Shown here piece after piece: positions 1 through 5,567 of a stretch of DNA of 5,567 nt. The position numbers and the translations under genes were made by a program. The notes beneath the pieces were generated by a model. It saw only the letters and a list, made by a program, of their open reading frames with translations, was not told the origin of the DNA and ran no database searches. This DNA comes from a virus (taxonomy: Duplodnaviria > Heunggongvirae > Uroviricota > Caudoviricetes). The stretch is from positions 1 to 5,567 of IMG/VR virus record IMGVR_UViG_2703718778_000001, one strand, 5' to 3'. Each line of letters starts with the position of its first letter. Positions within the stretch are counted from its first letter, which is position 1.

Positions 1-367
1 CCTGCGCAACGCAGAGGGAACAGAGCTGGCAGCAGTGACCGAATTTCTGGCGTTCATTTCACGCAATATGCATGACGAAAGCCCGGGCAATTCACTGACC
101 ATATGGTGCAAGGGCGCATCCTTCGATTTCCCGATCCTGAAATCCGCCATAACACGCACAGCCGGAGAAAAAAGCATTCCGTGGTGCTACTGGAACGAGC
201 GCTGTATGCGCCCGCTTATCGCCATGGCTGAGTCAACGGGCTGGAAAATGCCAGGCAGATCAGGAAAAGAGGCCATTGCTCACACCGCACTAAGCGACGC
301 CATTTACCAGGCAAAGATCGTGTCAGAAATCTGGCAGCGCTTCACAACACCATTCCTGAACATATGA
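1..367 (+). CDS. DnaQ/DEDDh-like 3'-5' exonuclease, C-terminal part (5' end lies outside the window)
   Basis: The reading frame is open from position 2 to the TAA/TGA stop at 365-367, so the listed GTG at 35 is probably internal and the gene starts upstream. The C-terminal region carries an H-x-A-L-x-D-A motif (AHTALSDAIYQ) resembling the Exo III motif of DnaQ/RNase T-type exonucleases. Family assignment is from motif recall only. Confidence 0.55.
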   Translation, partial: LRNAEGTELAAVTEFLAFISRNMHDESPGNSLTIWCKGASFDFPILKSAITRTAGEKSIPWCYWNERCMRPLIAMAESTGWKMPGRSGKEAIAHTALSDAIYQAKIVSEIWQRFTTPFLNI

Positions 368-599
368 GGTGAAGCCATGGTCGCAATCCTGAATATGCGT
401 TGCCGCCCCCCCTGAACGTGGAAACAAAAGCCCGCACGTCTCTGCGCTTATTTCGCAACGGAGCGCGGAATTTTTCACGCATAAAGCCCCACGACTACCT
501 GGTCATAAGAATCGGTTTTCGCTGGCGATTACTGAGCAAAAACAACGGGAAGTCATGGGATTTATTAACGCACGAAACCTATAACAGAGAGGCCGCGTT

Positions 600-1574
600 A
601 TGAGCGAAAAACTGTTATCCGGCACACCGCTGAAATGGGTGGGCGGAAAAAACCGCATCATGGACACACTGAAGGCGCACCTGCCAGAAGCTGACTGCCT
701 GGTTGAGCCGTTCGTGGGTGGCGCATCGGTATTCATGAACACCCGTTACAGCCGCTGCATCCTTGGAGATTCCAACGGTGCGCTGATTAATTTCTGGCGG
801 GCAGCACGGGACAACACCGACAGCCTGATCGATGAGGCAAAAGACCTGTTCCTGGAACATAACAACAGGGCTGACTATCTCGCCATCCGCAACACCTTTA
901 ATGCAGAGAATCATGCATTCCTGAGCACGGGAATAAGCGACCGTCGGAAACTGCGACTGGCCGCCATGTTTTTGTACCTCAACCGACACTGTTTTAACGG
1001 CCTGTTCCGCGTGAATGGAAAAGGCGATTTTAACGTTCCTTTCGGCAGCTACAGCAAACCTTATTTTCCTGAGCGGGAGATCCGCGCATTTGCAGACAAG
1101 GCAAACAGCACCCGAACACTGCTTGTTCATGGCGATTTTCGAAAAACGCTGAGCTGTGCCAGCCACCTGTTCAGCATGGGTAACACGCTTTGCGTGTACT
1201 GCGATCCCCCTTACCTGCCATTCAGTGGCCGGGACAATTTCACCGCCTATGGAAAACCATTCACGAAGGACGACCACATTCGCCTGAGAGCAGCGCTTGA
1301 CCGCCTTTCACAGGAAACGGGCGGCATGACCAGCATCACCATCTCCAATTCCGACACACCGGAAACCAGACGCATTTATCAGGGTTACCGGATGAACTGC
1401 ATACAGGCACCACGAAGCGTTGGCGCAAGAACCAGTGAACCCGCAATGGAAGTTATCGCCACCCTGAAGCAGTGCGACACCTGCGGTCGCCATGGCGGTG
1501 GCTGGTGCCCGGACTGCGGCCCGGCGACGGGAGATGCAACGTACAGCGCGATGTTTACCTCTGCTCACCCGTGA
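600..1574 (+). CDS. dam: Dam-family N6-adenine DNA methyltransferase (probably GATC-specific), with a ~35-aa Cys-rich C-terminal tail
   Basis: ATG at 600 is preceded by AGAGAGG (585-591). The protein has the Dam hallmarks LKWVGGK near the N-terminus, CLVEPFVGGASVF, FLYLNR..FNG..R.N..G.FNVPFG.Y.KPYFPE, and the catalytic DPPY motif (VYCDPPYLPFS), co-linear with E. coli Dam as I recall it. The extra tail contains CDTCGRHGGGWCPDCG (CxxC-x7-CxxC). Confidence 0.92.
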   Translation: MSEKLLSGTPLKWVGGKNRIMDTLKAHLPEADCLVEPFVGGASVFMNTRYSRCILGDSNGALINFWRAARDNTDSLIDEAKDLFLEHNNRADYLAIRNTFNAENHAFLSTGISDRRKLRLAAMFLYLNRHCFNGLFRVNGKGDFNVPFGSYSKPYFPEREIRAFADKANSTRTLLVHGDFRKTLSCASHLFSMGNTLCVYCDPPYLPFSGRDNFTAYGKPFTKDDHIRLRAALDRLSQETGGMTSITISNSDTPETRRIYQGYRMNCIQAPRSVGARTSEPAMEVIATLKQCDTCGRHGGGWCPDCGPATGDATYSAMFTSAHP

Positions 1575-1609
1575 ATAACCAGATGAATCAGCAACACAGG
1601 AGTCAACCG

Positions 1610-1855
1610 GTGAATAACAAAAGCACGCAGCAATCAATCGTCGTTTCAGCACTGAGATATCTGGCCTGCATCAAACAACAGGAAGCAAGAGAGGCGGTGG
1701 AGAAGCGGGATTCGGGGATATTTGTGGCACTTGGACACAGCTATACGGCAATGCTTGCCAGCAGGTCCGCTGAATTCATTGAGGAGCAGCAACGGGAAAT
1801 TGAGGCACTTAAAACCGCAGCAAACAAGGAACGGAGAGGAAGGGGCGAACAATGA
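1610..1855 (+). CDS. hypothetical small protein (~81 aa) with a charged, coiled-coil-like C-terminus
   Basis: GTG at 1610 is preceded by AGGAG (1598-1602) at 7-nt spacing; an in-frame ATG at 1583 without a Shine-Dalgarno is the alternative start. The listed ORF start at 1472 lies inside dam and is rejected. The TGA stop at 1853-1855 overlaps the next ATG (ATGA). Confidence 0.5.
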   Translation: MNNKSTQQSIVVSALRYLACIKQQEAREAVEKRDSGIFVALGHSYTAMLASRSAEFIEEQQREIEALKTAANKERRGRGEQ

Positions 1856-2070
1856 TCCAGGAATCAACCATTATCCGGTTCACAGCCAACGGCCGTCAGT
1901 ACGAAGTCGACGAAAGCCTGATTGACCCGGGCATGACACGCCAGGACTCACGCAATCCTGAGATGCATCACATCCGCCTTATCAACGGTTCGCACTTCTG
2001 CGCCACAAACGTGGAAGAAGTACGCGTGCTGACAGCAACACGCAATACGGGAGGTAAAGCATGGCAGTGA
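1852..2070 (+). CDS. hypothetical protein (72 aa)
   Basis: ATG at 1852 is preceded by GGAGAGGAAGGGG and overlaps the upstream stop as ATGA, suggesting translational coupling. Its 3' end overlaps the next gene's start by 10 nt. No recognisable motif. Confidence 0.55.
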   Translation: MIQESTIIRFTANGRQYEVDESLIDPGMTRQDSRNPEMHHIRLINGSHFCATNVEEVRVLTATRNTGGKAWQ

Positions 2071-2411
2071 TTTATATCGCCGGTCCCATGACCGGATGCA
2101 AAGACCACAACAGGACGGCATTTTGCGCGGAGGACCTGAAACTTCGGTGCGCCGGAAACATCGTTCTTAATCCTGCCGTGCTGCCTGACGGATTAAGCCA
2201 GCAGCAGTACATGAGCATTTGTATTCCGATGCTCATGTGTGCCGATGCCATTTACTTACTGGATGGATGGGAAGAGTCCGCTGGCGCACGGGCTGAGTAC
2301 GCAATGGCACTCAAGCTGAACATGCCGGTGTCATTCCCGGAAAATCGGGCGGCCGGCGAAACTGTCGCACAGCTGCTTGGCAAATCAAAAGCCGCACAGG
2401 CGACTGAGTAA
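2061..2411 (+). CDS. DUF4406 / nucleoside 2-deoxyribosyltransferase-like (NDT-fold) protein
   Basis: ATG at 2061 is preceded by GGGAGG (2049-2054). The N-terminal YIAGPMTG motif resembles the conserved YxAGP motif of the nucleoside 2-deoxyribosyltransferase-like superfamily. The protein is small (116 aa) and standalone. Family assignment is from motif recall and needs an HMM check. Confidence 0.65.
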   Translation: MAVIYIAGPMTGCKDHNRTAFCAEDLKLRCAGNIVLNPAVLPDGLSQQQYMSICIPMLMCADAIYLLDGWEESAGARAEYAMALKLNMPVSFPENRAAGETVAQLLGKSKAAQATE

Positions 2412-2909
2412 CCGACCGGAGATCGAAACATGATTGCGCGAAGAGCTGCCAACCGCCTCACAGGCTTTATTCCAGGCAAGATTAATCATGCACTCCATGA
2501 TGGGACTGTCACTTTCCTCAACAAAGGAGAGGCGCGCAATCATGCATTCCTTACTAATCACATGGCGCTGACTGATAAGGCGCTGGTAACTGACTGCCTG
2601 CCATTCAGCCTTTTCAGCCCTGCGTTCAAAACTGGCAGCCATGCACTGCCAGAGCAGAAACAGAACCACACTGAAGAGTACCAACACAACAAAATCACAC
2701 AGGACAAACGCCGCAACACCAACCAGAAAGGCGCTGATTCGCAGAGCAGCAGAAACGCGTCGGTGAAACACACATGTAATACGTTCAAGCCAGTAGCTGT
2801 ACCACAGGTCAAAAAGAATGTCGTAATCAGAAGGGAGCTTATCACTCATCAGAAACACCCCGCGTATGCAGACAATCACCCGTTGCCAGGTGATATTAAT
2901 TCGCCACAT
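2385..2909 (-). CDS. candidate hypothetical membrane protein (one predicted transmembrane helix); low-confidence gene
   Basis: The minus-strand ORF is open from 2933 to 2385, with ATG candidates at 2909 and 2849 and only weak Shine-Dalgarno support. It has a ~30-aa hydrophobic segment (ISAFLVGVAAFVLCDFVVLVLFSVVLFLLW). Over the first ~168 codon triplets of the region (2430-2933), first-codon-position composition is more gene-like on the minus strand (G about 32%, T about 21%) than on the + strand shadow frame (G about 25%, T about 10%), by manual count. Its 3' end overlaps the DUF4406 gene convergently by 27 nt. Confidence 0.3.
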   Translation of the reverse strand: MWRINITWQRVIVCIRGVFLMSDKLPSDYDILFDLWYSYWLERITCVFHRRVSAALRISAFLVGVAAFVLCDFVVLVLFSVVLFLLWQCMAASFERRAEKAEWQAVSYQRLISQRHVISKECMIARLSFVEESDSPIMECMINLAWNKACEAVGSSSRNHVSISGRLLSRLCGF

Positions 2910-3032
2910 TCTAACCACATCAGCACGCAACACAAAAACCGCTTGCCAGCGCTCGTCGTGTCAGGTTACATTTCCGCTGCACCTCATAAAACGGGTGCCG
3001 GGATTGGAACCCCGCCGACTAGCAAAGCGCAC

Positions 3033-3053
3033 AACCGCGCCAGCGGTTTTTTT
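3033..3053 (+). terminator. candidate intrinsic terminator: short GC stem-loop followed by a T7 run
   Basis: AACCGC (3033-3038) pairs with GCGGTT (3043-3048) around a GCCA loop, then TTTTTTT spans 3047-3053. The U-tract follows the stem only on the + strand. The stem is short (4 G-C plus 2 A-U pairs), so strength is uncertain. Confidence 0.35.
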
Positions 3054-3106
3054 GTGCGTACTGTATCGCCACGTCTTTTTCGCGTCAGAATAATGGCGGG
3101 GCGTAC

Positions 3107-3130
3107 GGGGCCGACTTCGGTCGGGCCGGG
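3107..3130 (+). other. GC-rich stem-loop with a UUCG tetraloop (structured RNA or DNA element)
   Basis: CCGAC (3111-3115) pairs with GTCGG (3120-3124) around TTCG (3116-3119), with flanking G/C pairs able to extend the stem across one mismatch. It is followed by GGGTTCTTT. It sits in the region with no convincing + strand gene. Confidence 0.4.
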
Positions 3131-3232
3131 TTCTTTGCTAGCCGGTAGTTCCAACCCTGTACGTCTCGCCACCCTGAGCTTGGAACCTCGGGTTGGTGAG
3201 TTTTCAGAACTTACTAGCAAAGAGGCCACACC

Positions 3233-3460
3233 ATGGCAAACCGCAAGCAACAGCGCGCCCGCGCTGAGCGTCTTCACATCCGCACTGAAATCAACCGCAG
3301 ACTTTTCCGCGCCTCACGCGTCGCGCAAATCATGCACATCAATATGCTGCATGAGCGCACTCACGCTCTGTCAAACCGTTACTGTGCCGCTGTTTTCAGC
3401 TACCTGGCGGATGATCTCGCGGAGCTGCAGGACCTTATCAACCAGCAACACCACCACTAA
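3233..3460 (+). CDS. hypothetical small basic protein (75 aa)
   Basis: ATG at 3233 is preceded by AGAGG (3221-3225) at 7-nt spacing. The N-terminus is strongly basic (MANRKQQRARAERLHIRTEINRR) and the protein ends in HHH. Its position two genes upstream of the replication gene matches the small-ORF cluster of P2-like phages. Confidence 0.55.
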   Translation: MANRKQQRARAERLHIRTEINRRLFRASRVAQIMHINMLHERTHALSNRYCAAVFSYLADDLAELQDLINQQHHH

Positions 3461-3528
3461 ACAACATCCTGAAGCCATCCCGCACCCGTGCGCGGGAGGC
3501 TTCCGCACGTCTGTTACCGGAGGTTCTC

Positions 3529-3945
3529 ATGAAGAGCGTTAAGGGACTTTCAGATATTCAGGACTTTTTTAACTGGATGTGGGCGGTGGATCCCCTGCTG
3601 GCTTCCCGCCTGAACAACTGGCACGACTACTACCGCCGCGCCTGTAAACAGGCCGCCCGCAGCATCACCACATACGGGGATTTCTCCTTCACCGTTGACG
3701 GTCGTTACCGCGTGGACGTGAAAGGTGACGGTGATGGCTTTGGTTTATTTCACATCAACGGCACCGACAGTACCGCCATCAGCTGGTCATCGTCAGAGAT
3801 GGCACTGGTTCTGGAAATGACAACCCACAGCGTGGCCGTGAAAGGCATATACACCGCAGAAGACTTTATCGGTGAATACCAGCGCCTTCTCGTGCTGTAC
3901 CGCGCGGCGTTTCAGGAGGTCACTGGCGGGGAGTACGACGCATGA
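3529..3945 (+). CDS. hypothetical protein (138 aa)
   Basis: ATG at 3529 is preceded by GGAGG (3519-3523). The TGA stop at 3943-3945 overlaps the ATG of the downstream replication gene (ATGA at 3942-3945). No recognisable motif. Confidence 0.65.
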   Translation: MKSVKGLSDIQDFFNWMWAVDPLLASRLNNWHDYYRRACKQAARSITTYGDFSFTVDGRYRVDVKGDGDGFGLFHINGTDSTAISWSSSEMALVLEMTTHSVAVKGIYTAEDFIGEYQRLLVLYRAAFQEVTGGEYDA

Positions 3946-5567
3946 GTGACCGCAATGCACAGCTGGCGTACCCGTGGAACGCACCGCTACCGGTTATCGA
4001 TCCTGAAACGTTCGGCAGAGCACAACCAACCGCATTACGCCAGGCCATTCAGAGCTACATCAACGAGGACATTCGCATTGATGCCAGACTGGATGAAGAA
4101 ACCGTCTCCTTCCTGACAAACACAGACGAAGGCAAGCGAATTAATTCGCATCTTCACCACGACGAAGAGCGTCGGGTCAGACTGGAAAAACTGGCGAAGC
4201 ACAAACGCGAGAATCCGCCCACGGTGGTATCGGAAGCCATGGCAGAACTTCGCGCCCTGCCCTCGTTTCTTGGCAACGTGCTCATTCGTGATCTGGCGCG
4301 TTTAAACCGCAAACAACAAAGCGCCCGCAATGAAGGCGTGAAAAACAACAACACTCACGTGGCCGATAACTTCGTTCGCCGTGGACTGCGCACACGCCTG
4401 AAACGCATCGAACAGGTGAATGAATGCTTCGCCACGACGGCATTCAAAGCCACCGCAGCGCGTCATCGCCTTGATGAATTACTCATGCTGCCACAACTCA
4501 ACCGTGATCAAATTCAGCGCCTTGCCACACTAACGGCGGCGGCATTTTCCACCGAACTGGAACGCAGATGTGATGAAGTTACTGAGCGGACAGGAAAAGG
4601 CGACGATAACCTGTTTACCTGGTTGCTGACTTACCAGCAGCTGGCGCGCATGGCAATAAAACTGGGCGTGAACCCACCATACTGGCCGTCACTCGAGATC
4701 AGACGTGACCGCCGCACGGCACCAGACCCTGAACTGGTACCGGGCGCGGTAATGCGTATCACCTGCGCCACCTGGTGGAACAACCAGCTGCGCCACCTCG
4801 CTGATCTCTGGCGGGAGGAATTACTGCGTGCCGCCGGAAGAGTATCGCGCAAGGCATCCCCCTACATCAGCCATGAGTCACTCCAGGAATTCCGGGAGAA
4901 ACGCCAGCGCACCCGTGATTTTCTCAAAAGCTGGGACATTGAAAACGAAGACGGTGAACGCCTGAGCCTGGAGGACGTGTACTGGTCAGGGCTGGGGAAT
5001 CCGCGCAACCGCCGCAACGAGATGATGGCCTGCGTCAGAGGGATGGAACAGGTCGCCGAATCGCGTGGTGACTCCGCGTTCTTCGTGACAGTGACCTGCC
5101 CTTCCCGCTTTCACAGCGTAAACGAGGACGGCAGCCTGAACCCGAAATACAACGGTGCCACCGTGCGCGATGCCAGTGATTATCTGGTTTACGACGTCTT
5201 TGCAGCTGCAAGAAAAAAACTCAACAAAGAAGGCCTGAGCTGGTACGGGGTGCGCACCGTTGAGCCACACCATGACGGCACACCGCACTGGCACATGCTG
5301 GTATTCACCGCCCCGGACAATGAAGAACGCATCATTGAAATCATGCGTGACGCAGCAATCAAATCAGATCGCGCAGAACTGGGGAATGATATTTCTCCGC
5401 GCTTCAAATGCGAAAAAATCGACCCGGCAAAAGGCACACCGGCAAGCTACATCGCAACCTATATTGGCAAGAACCTGGACGCCAGCACCTTTCACGACAA
5501 TGACCCGAAAACCGGCAAACCTTACGCCGATAAAGAATCGGGAAAAACCATGGCGGAAACCGTGGAA
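3942..5567 (+). CDS. A: P2 gpA-family rolling-circle replication initiation endonuclease, N-terminal ~542 codons (3' end lies outside the window)
   Basis: The ORF starts at ATG 3942, preceded by GGGGAG, and by manual translation has no stop through the window end at 5567. It is absent from the supplied ORF track only because it has no stop in the window. It contains an HUH-type motif (PHWHMLVF, codons at 5283-5306) typical of the HUH endonuclease superfamily to which P2 gpA belongs. Overall similarity to P2/186 A protein is from recall. Confidence 0.88.
   Translation, partial: MSDRNAQLAYPWNAPLPVIDPETFGRAQPTALRQAIQSYINEDIRIDARLDEETVSFLTNTDEGKRINSHLHHDEERRVRLEKLAKHKRENPPTVVSEAMAELRALPSFLGNVLIRDLARLNRKQQSARNEGVKNNNTHVADNFVRRGLRTRLKRIEQVNECFATTAFKATAARHRLDELLMLPQLNRDQIQRLATLTAAAFSTELERRCDEVTERTGKGDDNLFTWLLTYQQLARMAIKLGVNPPYWPSLEIRRDRRTAPDPELVPGAVMRITCATWWNNQLRHLADLWREELLRAAGRVSRKASPYISHESLQEFREKRQRTRDFLKSWDIENEDGERLSLEDVYWSGLGNPRNRRNEMMACVRGMEQVAESRGDSAFFVTVTCPSRFHSVNEDGSLNPKYNGATVRDASDYLVYDVFAAARKKLNKEGLSWYGVRTVEPHHDGTPHWHMLVFTAPDNEERIIEIMRDAAIKSDRAELGNDISPRFKCEKIDPAKGTPASYIATYIGKNLDASTFHDNDPKTGKPYADKESGKTMAETVE

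Follow-up and report, generated by a model that had tools for sequence, protein, structure and literature searches.

An antisense membrane-protein gene, a C4/IsrK-type RNA module and a stop-free bridging reading frame share one interval in the early operon of a P2-like Escherichia coli prophage

The interval at positions 2412-3232 of a viral DNA stretch of 5,567 nt (positions 1 to 5,567 of the IMG/VR virus record IMGVR_UViG_2703718778_000001; the whole stretch is hereafter called the window) consists of three overlapping layers: a minus-strand gene for a predicted membrane protein, an RNA immunity module and a plus-strand open reading frame (ORF) that bridges both. The window corresponds to the early region of an Escherichia coli prophage that is P2-like (Peduoviridae, P88/Xuanwuvirus-type). 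Judged from a comparison of lineages, the plus-strand frame over the membrane gene is kept free of stop codons by selection. The depletion of the codons whose complements are stops is a new observation of this analysis, and a codon-purged antisense gene nested under an ORF resembling eta of the satellite P4 is a new arrangement. An antisense cargo gene for a membrane protein, an RNA immunity module and a translated, eta-like bridge ORF together form the joint explanation that we favor, with a confidence somewhat better than even. An earlier reading of the DNA without database searches (the sequence-only reading) had singled out the interval as one lacking a convincing plus-strand gene. The open frames that it reported are exact, namely plus strand 2430-3542 (370 aa) and, in the same register, minus strand 2385-2933 (182 aa), and the openness of both goes beyond chance. 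The features of the minus-strand gene and of the bridge ORF are as follows.

2849 to 2385, minus strand: gene for a 154-aa predicted inner-membrane protein (ratio of nonsynonymous to synonymous substitution rates, dN/dS; phrog_6315; distant homologues; AlphaFold2 model; hydropathy)
2908-2935, minus strand: candidate sigma-70 promoter of this gene, TTGTGT-16 nt-TAGAAT (read from the sequence)
2390-2405, minus strand: weak terminator-like hairpin and T-run over the stop codon of this gene (consensus scan)
2430-3542, plus strand: 370-codon eta/Ash-like bridge ORF (conserved openness, Ash and PHROG matches, layout)
2418-2432, plus strand: start of the bridge ORF, with the Shine-Dalgarno (SD) sequence GGAG at 2418-2421, 8 nt and ATG at 2430 (conserved in relatives)

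The minus-strand ORF is, by its pattern of substitutions and its homologues, a real gene for a membrane protein. In a comparison with two 87%-identical relatives, dN/dS was 0.20 in the minus frame, as against 1.14-1.24 in the plus frame. The two remaining frames of the minus strand gave 1.1-1.9 and the neighboring genes 0.06-0.27; these ratios indicate that the minus frame is under purifying selection. Among the window and five E. coli relatives, the variable sites in 2412-2849 fell 48/27/17 at minus-strand codon positions 3/1/2, which together with the dN/dS value bears out the earlier impression that the minus frame is the more gene-like of the two. An independent lineage of the gene gave 55/16/6 at the same positions. 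The product matches phrog_6315 (E=3e-54), and an exhaustive HMMER search recovered 24 distant representatives of ~150-160 aa that aligned end to end.

The true start is most likely the ATG at 2849, giving 154 aa, because all family members and the PHROG profile begin there and the 84 nt upstream do not vary in a gene-like manner: in the E. coli relatives 3 of the 84 sites in 2850-2933 are variable, all at codon position 2. The longer starts GTG 2933 and ATG 2909 were rejected for these reasons, and also since the candidate -10 element is situated downstream of 2909. Given the start evidence, the versions of 174 aa, 215 aa and longer produced by the Prokaryotic Genome Annotation Pipeline (PGAP) look over-extended; the record that is 99.5% identical to the window carries the 174-aa version (WP_089563215). 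Annotation is thus inconsistent, with PGAP extending the gene to 174-215 aa, over a promoter and even over isrK. The candidate promoter of the minus-strand gene stands back-to-back with the isrK promoter, and its geometry is kept in the L008 lineage with a perfect TATAAT, the 5′ untranslated regions (UTRs) being otherwise unalignable. A structured 5′ UTR or a strong terminator for the gene was rejected, as the respective folds were no better than those of shuffled sequence; an 8-bp hairpin in the 5′ UTR was likewise not significant in the shuffle comparison. As a separate observation, 2850-2978 is the most conserved part of the locus, with 4 of 129 sites variable among the E. coli relatives and flanking genes that differ by ~13%. 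Of this segment, only 2919 onwards is common to other isrK-bearing lineages, and 2850-2918 is the 5′ UTR of the minus-strand gene.

The codons TTA, CTA and TCA of the membrane gene read as stops on the opposite strand in the same register, and their expected number was calculated with the Leu and Ser codon usage of neighboring genes as null model. Wherever the membrane gene lies antisense in a P2/186-like or P4-like operon, it lacks these stop-complement codons inside the boundaries of the operon-strand ORF; the window has a single one, which corresponds on the other strand to the stop codon of DUF4406. In the Vibrio, Yersinia, 186-like and P4-like lineages there are 0 such codons against 6-10 expected. 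The probabilities per lineage were 6e-6 and 5e-6 (Vibrio), 2e-5 (Yersinia), 5e-5, 1e-3 and 6e-4 (186-like) and 2e-4 (P4-like), with weaker values for L031 (0.03), L007 (0.01) and the L008 group (0.009-0.12). In contrast, homologues of the gene in lambdoid phages have 4-18 stop-complement codons at similar GC content, above their own expectation, and the other two antisense frames always contain 3-18 stops. The operon-strand frame is accordingly stop-free in all P2/186-like lineages and in one P4-like element. The resulting ORFs measure 184-376 codons and their ends differ by lineage, yet they always cover essentially the whole membrane gene, and a recognizable SD sequence and start codon were found in 7 of 10 lineages. 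The stop-free rule is not universal, because the loci L043 and L044 carry stops.

In the window the bridge ORF begins 18 nt after the DUF4406 stop codon, in the same frame as DUF4406. Its codons 1-140 are antisense to the membrane gene, codons ~165-270 cover the isrK promoter, isrK and C4, and the rest overlaps the derepression gene out of frame, ending 14 nt inside orf138. It is kept at 374-376 codons with the same SD-ATG in the 87%-identical relatives. In P88-type phages without the membrane gene, a 215-218-codon version starts just past the upstream gene and ahead of the isrK promoter. This version reads through isrK and C4, overlaps the derepression gene out of frame and shares an ATGA stop/start with the gene that follows; the same eta-like layout is present in L040. 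Residues 165-296 of the plus-strand product match the PHROG families 821, 995 and 6928 at 1e-17 to 1e-18, and tblastn returned 98 phage records, mostly annotated as Rha, antirepressor or Ash. By these matches the middle of the bridge ORF appears to belong to the Ash/eta ORF family. It also has the layout of the eta type, in that the ORF begins by the preceding gene, upstream of an internal promoter, with isrK and C4 inside. Hence, the suggestion that one frame is the shadow of the other does not hold for the plus strand, which is selectively stop-free and in its middle appears to belong to the Ash/eta family, though over the overlap it shows no amino-acid constraint.

Independently of this, the upstream gene and the bridge ORF share one frame, separated by one stop and 6-7 codons, both in the window (2061-2411 and 2430-3542) and in the unrelated lineage of L033 (cII-like CP76 gene 4505-5008, bridge ORF 3752-4483). 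This may be a coincidence or a hint at stop-codon read-through or re-initiation.

A first alternative is antisense dual coding over 2430-2849, in which the hydrophilic N-terminal 140 aa of the plus-strand product are functional and, for example, neutralize the membrane protein in lytic growth. The maintenance of an open frame in at least 10 lineages and the SD-start signals are in line with it, the P4 proteins Eta and Kil are described as real products in the account of P4 given in PMC10111431, and the annotators of the Yersinia phage vB_YenM_42.18 chose the operon-strand gp08, not the membrane gene. Against it, amino-acid constraint was not detected in the plus frame over the overlap (dN/dS ~1.2), the minus-frame dS of 0.66-0.68 is not depressed relative to neighboring genes (0.49-0.58), and outside the overlap the substitutions in the operon-strand ORF show no third-position peak (18/8/8). 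The length and ends of the ORF vary, and there is no Pfam match. We therefore consider dual coding unlikely, and favor a bridge ORF in which translation would matter rather than its product. The plus-strand product is hydrophilic and compositionally odd.

The right part of the interval is, according to covariance-model matches and box complementarity, a known C4/IsrK-type immunity module. It is not new, because its architecture equals seqA-CI-seqC-epsilon of P4 and isrK-STnc1160-anrP of Gifsy-1. The module comprises the following features.

2943-2972, plus strand: promoter of the IsrK/C4 transcript, TTGCCA-18 nt-TACATT (promoter scan)
2979-3053, plus strand: IsrK / P4 seqA-like small RNA (Rfam RF01394, 67.9 bits, gathering cutoff 50)
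3004-3010 and 3019-3027, plus strand: isrK boxes b1 and a1, complementary to C4
3033-3053, plus strand: isrK intrinsic terminator (terminator scan)
3089-3176, plus strand: C4 / P4 CI-like antisense RNA (Rfam RF01695, 84.2 bits, gathering cutoff 45, model positions 1-87 of 87)
3133-3141 and 3148-3154, plus strand: C4 boxes a' and b'
3180-3232, plus strand: leader of the derepression gene, with boxes b2 (3180-3186) and a2 (3214-3222) and the SD sequence AAGAGG (3220-3225)

The promoter places the transcription start at ~2979, the first base of the Rfam isrK match, and both of its hexamers are invariant in six diverged loci. The 9-mer CTAGCAAAG has three occurrences in the window against 0.01 expected, at 3019 and 3214 and as its complement at 3133; similarly, TTGGAAC occurs at 3004 and 3180 with its complement at 3148. 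The predicted fold of C4 has -48.5 kcal/mol, and the a'-a2 duplex (-20.7 kcal/mol) extends to 3224, into the SD sequence AAGAGG. The three copies of each box covary across the six diverged loci: cognate pairing comprises 9-10 nt for a/a' and 7-8 nt for b/b', whereas non-cognate pairing is mostly 3-6 nt. Exceptions are loci with a common box type and three b'/b cross-pairs of 6-8 nt, namely b' of L007 and L012 with b1/b2 of L011 (8 nt) and b' of L008 and L013 with b2 of L007 and L012 (6 nt). L012 has a boxes of the L011 type and b boxes of the L007 type at all three positions (isrK, C4 and leader) and therefore has a recombinant immunity specificity. The derepression gene (PF25738 at 30.5 bits with a cutoff of 27, phrog_3688 at E=6e-41, dN/dS 0.06, PGAP name derepression protein) is presumably the regulated output of the module.

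The sequence-only reading had seen no convincing plus-strand gene in the interval, but a lack of plus-strand function does not hold for the right-hand 270 bp, which are taken up by this module. Its terminator near 3050 corresponds to the terminator-like hairpin and T-run at 3033-3053. This terminator ends the IsrK-like small RNA, which starts at ~2979, is divergent from the membrane gene and does not overlap it, instead of ending a plus-strand transcript across the gene as had been supposed. The sole predicted antisense transcript of the membrane gene is the early-operon mRNA, which reads through from the early promoter.

Two further observations concern the RNA module. A second promoter-like site, TCGCCA-17-AATAAT, lies at 3066-3094 (plus strand) between the isrK terminator and C4 and is conserved in relatives; it would start transcription inside the C4 model, and both an own promoter of C4 and processing of a read-through transcript are possible. 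The C4 RNA of P1 and P4 is processed from a longer transcript by RNase P. In L005 (NZ_CP075697.1, E. coli STEC2018-607) the isrK/C4/derepression module is tandemly duplicated at 2613-4566; the derepression genes lie at 3434-3655 and 4263-4484. As the copies are ~89% identical to each other, they may differ in C4 specificity.

Taking the gene, the RNAs, their covariation and the stop-free frame as given, we infer the promoter of the membrane gene, the timing of its expression, the role of its product and the anti-termination as follows. In the lysogen the membrane gene would be expressed from its own candidate promoter at ~2908-2935, and its product would act at the membrane as an accessory protein of the exclusion or abortive-infection type. 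The constitutive promoter at 2943-2972 would give rise to a short IsrK/seqA-like RNA ending at 3053 and, by read-through, to the C4/CI-like RNA, the a'/b' loops of which would pair with the isrK boxes and with the boxes over the ribosome-binding site of the derepression gene. This pairing would silence the derepression gene, and probably also orf138 and gene A, in the lysogen. It is plausible that convergent early transcription silences the membrane gene after induction.

Ribosomes on transcripts from the early promoter would load after DUF4406 and move first over the antisense of the membrane gene, then over the isrK terminator and lastly over the C4 targets. Their cover would prevent Rho-dependent and RNA-mediated termination, so that transcription could reach the derepression gene, orf138 and gene A. 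The antisense RNA, rich in C and poor in G, would offer Rho a good place to load when not covered by ribosomes: the C/G ratio of the plus-strand RNA is 1.55-1.87 over 2600-2978, with 1.55 over the antisense of the hairpin and 1.87 over 2850-2978, and the 78-nt segments with the highest ratios of the whole window lie at 2841-2950. Because the ORF starts ahead of the internal promoter, the bridge could be translated in full only on transcripts from the early promoter; those initiated internally do not contain the ORF start and would therefore be untranslated and terminate or become immunity RNAs. The membrane gene would have been purged of TTA, CTA and TCA to permit translation of the bridge.

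P2-type operons are not known to use antitermination of the N or Q kind, and they are Rho-sensitive, which is the basis of polarity suppression by Psu of P4. This would explain why the lambdoid homologues need no open frame. As a generalization, which we put forward with slightly less than even confidence, antisense cargo in P2/186-like and P4-like operons, which lack processive antitermination, may persist only where ribosomes can cross it on the operon strand; the cargo would be purged of TTA, CTA and TCA, and a bridge ORF without other meaning would be created or extended that shields the C-rich RNA from Rho, here by stretching an eta-like ORF upstream.

In the 154-aa form of the protein, residues 34-74 make up a hydrophobic block of 40 residues that is split by Asp51 in the hydropathy profile, so the hydrophobic helix noted earlier in the minus-strand product is present as a two-helix hairpin region. 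AlphaFold2 with the family alignment gave a model with a mean predicted local distance difference test (pLDDT) score of 91.3, with long helices at 8-50 and 54-93 followed by three short helices; the distal halves of the two long helices form the membrane hairpin. The modelled layout thus comprises a cytoplasmic N-terminal helix, a hairpin of two transmembrane (TM) segments at 34-74 and a helical C-terminal domain of ~80 aa. Since Arg and Lys flank both ends of the hairpin, both termini are suggested to be cytoplasmic.

Sequence searches of Pfam, NCBIfam, PADLOC and the PDB yielded nothing significant for the membrane protein, and PADLOC-DB 2.0 gave matches to 0 defense families at E<=0.1. The searches with hidden Markov models and structures that had been proposed earlier thus returned no significant known family and weak SLATT-like signals (SLATT, SMODS and SLOG-associating 2TM effector). 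In Foldseek against BFVD, six SLATT-annotated proteins were among the top 31 matches, with E 0.06-1.7, all short of significance, and with probabilities of 0.21-0.99, the four best reaching 0.97-0.99. Single family members gave faint Pfam matches to SLATT_3 and SLATT_4 (E 0.1-0.6, cutoffs ~26 bits). A role in superinfection exclusion or abortive infection is plausible.

In a further alternative, which appears quite unlikely, the membrane protein would not defend against other phages but act as the toxin of a kill switch, an addiction or lysis-timing module with convergent early transcription as its sole regulator. The protein is small with two TM segments and a weak SLATT-like fold, the homologue in L020 is co-directional and just upstream of a lambdoid holin, and the early transcript overlaps the whole gene and would silence it on induction. 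However, type I toxins are hydrophobic proteins of <~60 aa with a dedicated antisense RNA, and a protein of 154 aa with a conserved 80-aa cytoplasmic domain is unlike them. No discrete antisense RNA or antitoxin gene is conserved adjacent to the gene across contexts, IsrK begins at 2979, outside the gene, and 25 complete E. coli genomes carry the gene in stable prophages. The cis-antisense-regulated toxin considered by the sequence-only reading is disfavored on the same grounds, the protein having 154 aa with a conserved soluble domain and no discrete antisense small RNA. We therefore prefer the interpretation of the membrane protein as accessory cargo.

The distribution of the family argues for mobile prophage cargo of the moron type, as had been suggested earlier: members occupy classic moron sites and are usually antisense to the surrounding operon. 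Profile searches assigned ~60 clusters to the family in Escherichia, Citrobacter, Klebsiella, Serratia, Yersinia, Photorhabdus and Vibrio, with full-length homologues down to 20-25% identity; a third profile search did not extend it past the ~154-aa proteins. It is confined to temperate phages, where it is usually antisense to its neighbors. In the early operon of P2-, 186- and Firavirus-type phages it is antisense in the window, L007-L015, the Vibrio loci L017 and L028, L029 and L032-L038, in the last group directly after the 186-type cII gene. In lambdoid prophages it is found between Q, the late antiterminator, and the holin; L016, L018 and L019 have it antisense, L020 co-directional. Other members are neighbors of cI-type repressors, with which they converge (L022-L027), or belong to a leftward early operon (L041). 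The remaining contexts are a P4-like element (L042), two phages of the Mu-like kind (L031, L043) and an unclassified element (L044).

The gene thus has a patchy presence, unrelated sites and an orientation independent of the host operon. Among 5426 complete E. coli genomes it was found in 25, and the adjacent RNA module in 1235. A query for the DUF4406-isrK junction came back empty and all 25 genomes carry the gene, so that no E. coli genome has the same flanks without it. Simple insertion between conserved flanks was therefore rejected, as there is no empty site among complete E. coli genomes, and the left flank is mosaic, because no genome joins DUF4406 directly to isrK. The earlier proposal to look for a variable insertion between conserved flanks in related prophages thus turned up no empty site. 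A divergent membrane gene/isrK pair was present in 9 of 9 viral loci first examined. An obligatory partnership of the membrane gene with isrK/C4 was rejected, since its 186-like, Firavirus, lambdoid, Mu-like and P4-like contexts are without isrK or C4. As an individual case, L029 (Yersinia phage vB_YenM_42.18, NC_070913) has the operon-strand ORF gp08 (221 aa) annotated at 4809-5474 and the antisense gene omitted; the latter, a 2-TM gene at 4998-5465, is a full-length family member with 31.6% identity to the window protein.

Several points weigh against the joint explanation. The depletion of stop-complement codons is individually weak in the E. coli lineages (P=0.16 in this window), and antisense contexts with stops exist in the Mu-like L043 (7) and in L044 (2), the transcription layout of which is not known. 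The candidate promoter of the minus-strand gene matches 8 of 12 consensus positions and is below the threshold of the promoter scan, and the fold of the hairpin at 2390-2405 is no better than shuffles (z=+0.24). For the bridge ORF, the Phage_ASH match (PF10554, aa 180-269, E=9.8e-5) has 23.2 bits with a cutoff of 26, and its openness over the derepression gene exceeds chance only marginally (P 0.02-0.14), for which reason this openness was rejected as independent evidence. The role of the protein rests on context and a weak SLATT-like fold signal (Foldseek E 0.06-0.25; Pfam E 0.1-0.6). The reading in which the plus-strand ORF over the membrane gene is a spurious, unselected shadow, with early transcripts crossing untranslated or the internal promoter serving gene A, can appeal to the weak depletion in this window, to the tolerance of stops in L043 and L044, to a product that is not protein-like in composition with dN/dS ~1.2 and to the same-register antisense frame being the most prone to long spurious ORFs, but it is the least probable of the alternatives given the absence of stop-complement codons in the Vibrio, Yersinia, 186-like and P4-like lineages, their abundance in the lambdoid homologues, the stops in the other two antisense frames and the coupling of the start and end of the ORF to neighboring genes.

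The closest known system is the immunity region of P4. As far as it is summarized in PMC10111431 and PMC4825925, it has the PLE promoter, seqA, the CI RNA and seqC within the nested ORFs eta/kil, and epsilon and alpha come next. The eta ORF contains the constitutive internal promoter, seqA and CI and is fully translated only from the upstream promoter (in the description of PMC10111431), and the same article, in its summary of Forti et al. (1999, J Bacteriol 181:5225), states that "Eta translation prevents termination". The window resembles P4 in the internal constitutive promoter inside a longer ORF that starts beside the preceding gene, in the seqA-like isrK and CI-like C4 with complementary boxes on both sides, followed by an epsilon-type gene and replication genes, and in an ORF matching the Ash/eta family over the RNA region, with a Phage_ASH score just below the Pfam cutoff. 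It differs in that the host is not a satellite but a P2-like helper-type phage with its own C repressor, in that the ORF has no Bro/Rha-type C-terminal domain and runs out of frame across the derepression gene, and in that its first 140 codons are antisense to a membrane gene that is absent from P4.

As in the immI region (c4, icd, ant) of P1 and P7, the a'/b' loops pair with a1/b1 upstream and with a2/b2 over the ribosome-binding site, the output is an antirepressor, and specificity types differ via covarying boxes; such boxes set the c4 specificity in P1/P7 heteroimmunity. Unlike immI, the window lacks icd and ant as a pair, an epsilon-like protein of 75 aa is the target and the upstream boxes are located in a terminated small RNA, IsrK. 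In Gifsy-1, isrK-orf45(STnc1160)-anrP comprises IsrK with a terminator, a processed ~80-nt RNA and an antirepressor gene (PMC4825925). The window shares the IsrK small RNA with terminator, a downstream RNA complementary to IsrK and the antirepressor gene that follows. However, the 45-codon ORF over the C4-like RNA of Gifsy-1 couples translation through an AUGA overlap with anrP (PMC4825925), whereas the window frame over C4 continues past the derepression start, and the antirepressor families differ.

Like moron and exclusion genes (rexAB and sieB of lambda, sieA/sieB of P22, gp15 of HK97), the minus-strand ORF encodes a small membrane protein; it has a candidate promoter of its own, and its family occupies the Q-holin and cI-adjacent lambdoid hot spots and is patchy among related prophages. 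Its product has no sequence or profile similarity to those proteins, and in P2/186-like phages the gene is, unlike them, nested antisense inside an operon-strand ORF. With SLATT proteins it shares an N-terminal helix, a two-TM hairpin and C-terminal helices, while all its scores are below significance and an associated nucleotide-signaling gene is not present. The family is a new, uncharacterized member of the prophage-cargo class and a candidate exclusion or abortive-infection effector.

The locus provides a concrete case in which the codon usage of a gene appears to be shaped by translation of the opposite strand. If true, this would be a new selective constraint tying the codon choice of one gene to opposite-strand transcription. 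In addition, the principle known from P4 eta, that translation can counteract termination, would then apply to a helper-type P2-like phage and to 186-like phages without the RNA module. The passage of early transcription across the C4/IsrK switch bears on prophage induction, and in ~23% of complete E. coli genomes this switch precedes replication gene A. Its RNA genes are unannotated in all records retrieved. Moreover, a PGAP pseudogene named ash family protein (missing C-terminus) lies atop the C4 RNA in many E. coli prophages, e.g. at 2590-2757 in L040 (NZ_AP028869.1), and the Yersinia phage record annotates the bridge ORF, not the membrane gene.

The closest record to the window is a prophage in E. 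coli strain LZSFT34 (99.5% identity). Its gene order is the C repressor, Cox, several small genes, a 3'-5' exonuclease, a ParE-like gene, the Dam methylase, two small ORFs, DUF4406, the minus-strand hypothetical gene, the derepression protein, a hypothetical gene and the replication endonuclease A. The genes flanking the interval are as follows.

2061-2411, plus strand: DUF4406 (nucleoside 2-deoxyribosyltransferase-like) gene (Pfam PF14359, 113 bits; PGAP coding sequence in the 99.5%-identical E. coli record)
3233-3460, plus strand: derepression (P4 epsilon-like antirepressor) gene (Pfam PF25738, phrog_3688)
3529-3945, plus strand: orf138 (phrog_3237; ORF list, PHROG, PGAP record)
ATG at 3942, plus strand: replication gene A, directly after orf138

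These positions agree with the tight packing of plus-strand genes noted earlier on both sides of the interval. DUF4406 is the final ordinary early gene ahead of it, and its final 27 nt overlap the 3′ end of the minus-strand gene. Expression of orf138 and gene A would require transcription passing through the interval. Further upstream, a 61-67-aa ORF at 400-603 (plus strand) forms an ATGA overlap with the start of the Dam methylase gene at 600; PGAP names it ParE family toxin-like protein in relatives, and it has no obvious adjacent antitoxin and no NCBIfam match. The Cys-rich tail of the Dam methylase at 1440-1574 (plus strand; CDTCGRHGGGWCPDCG) resembles a small zinc ribbon, which is atypical for the Dam core.

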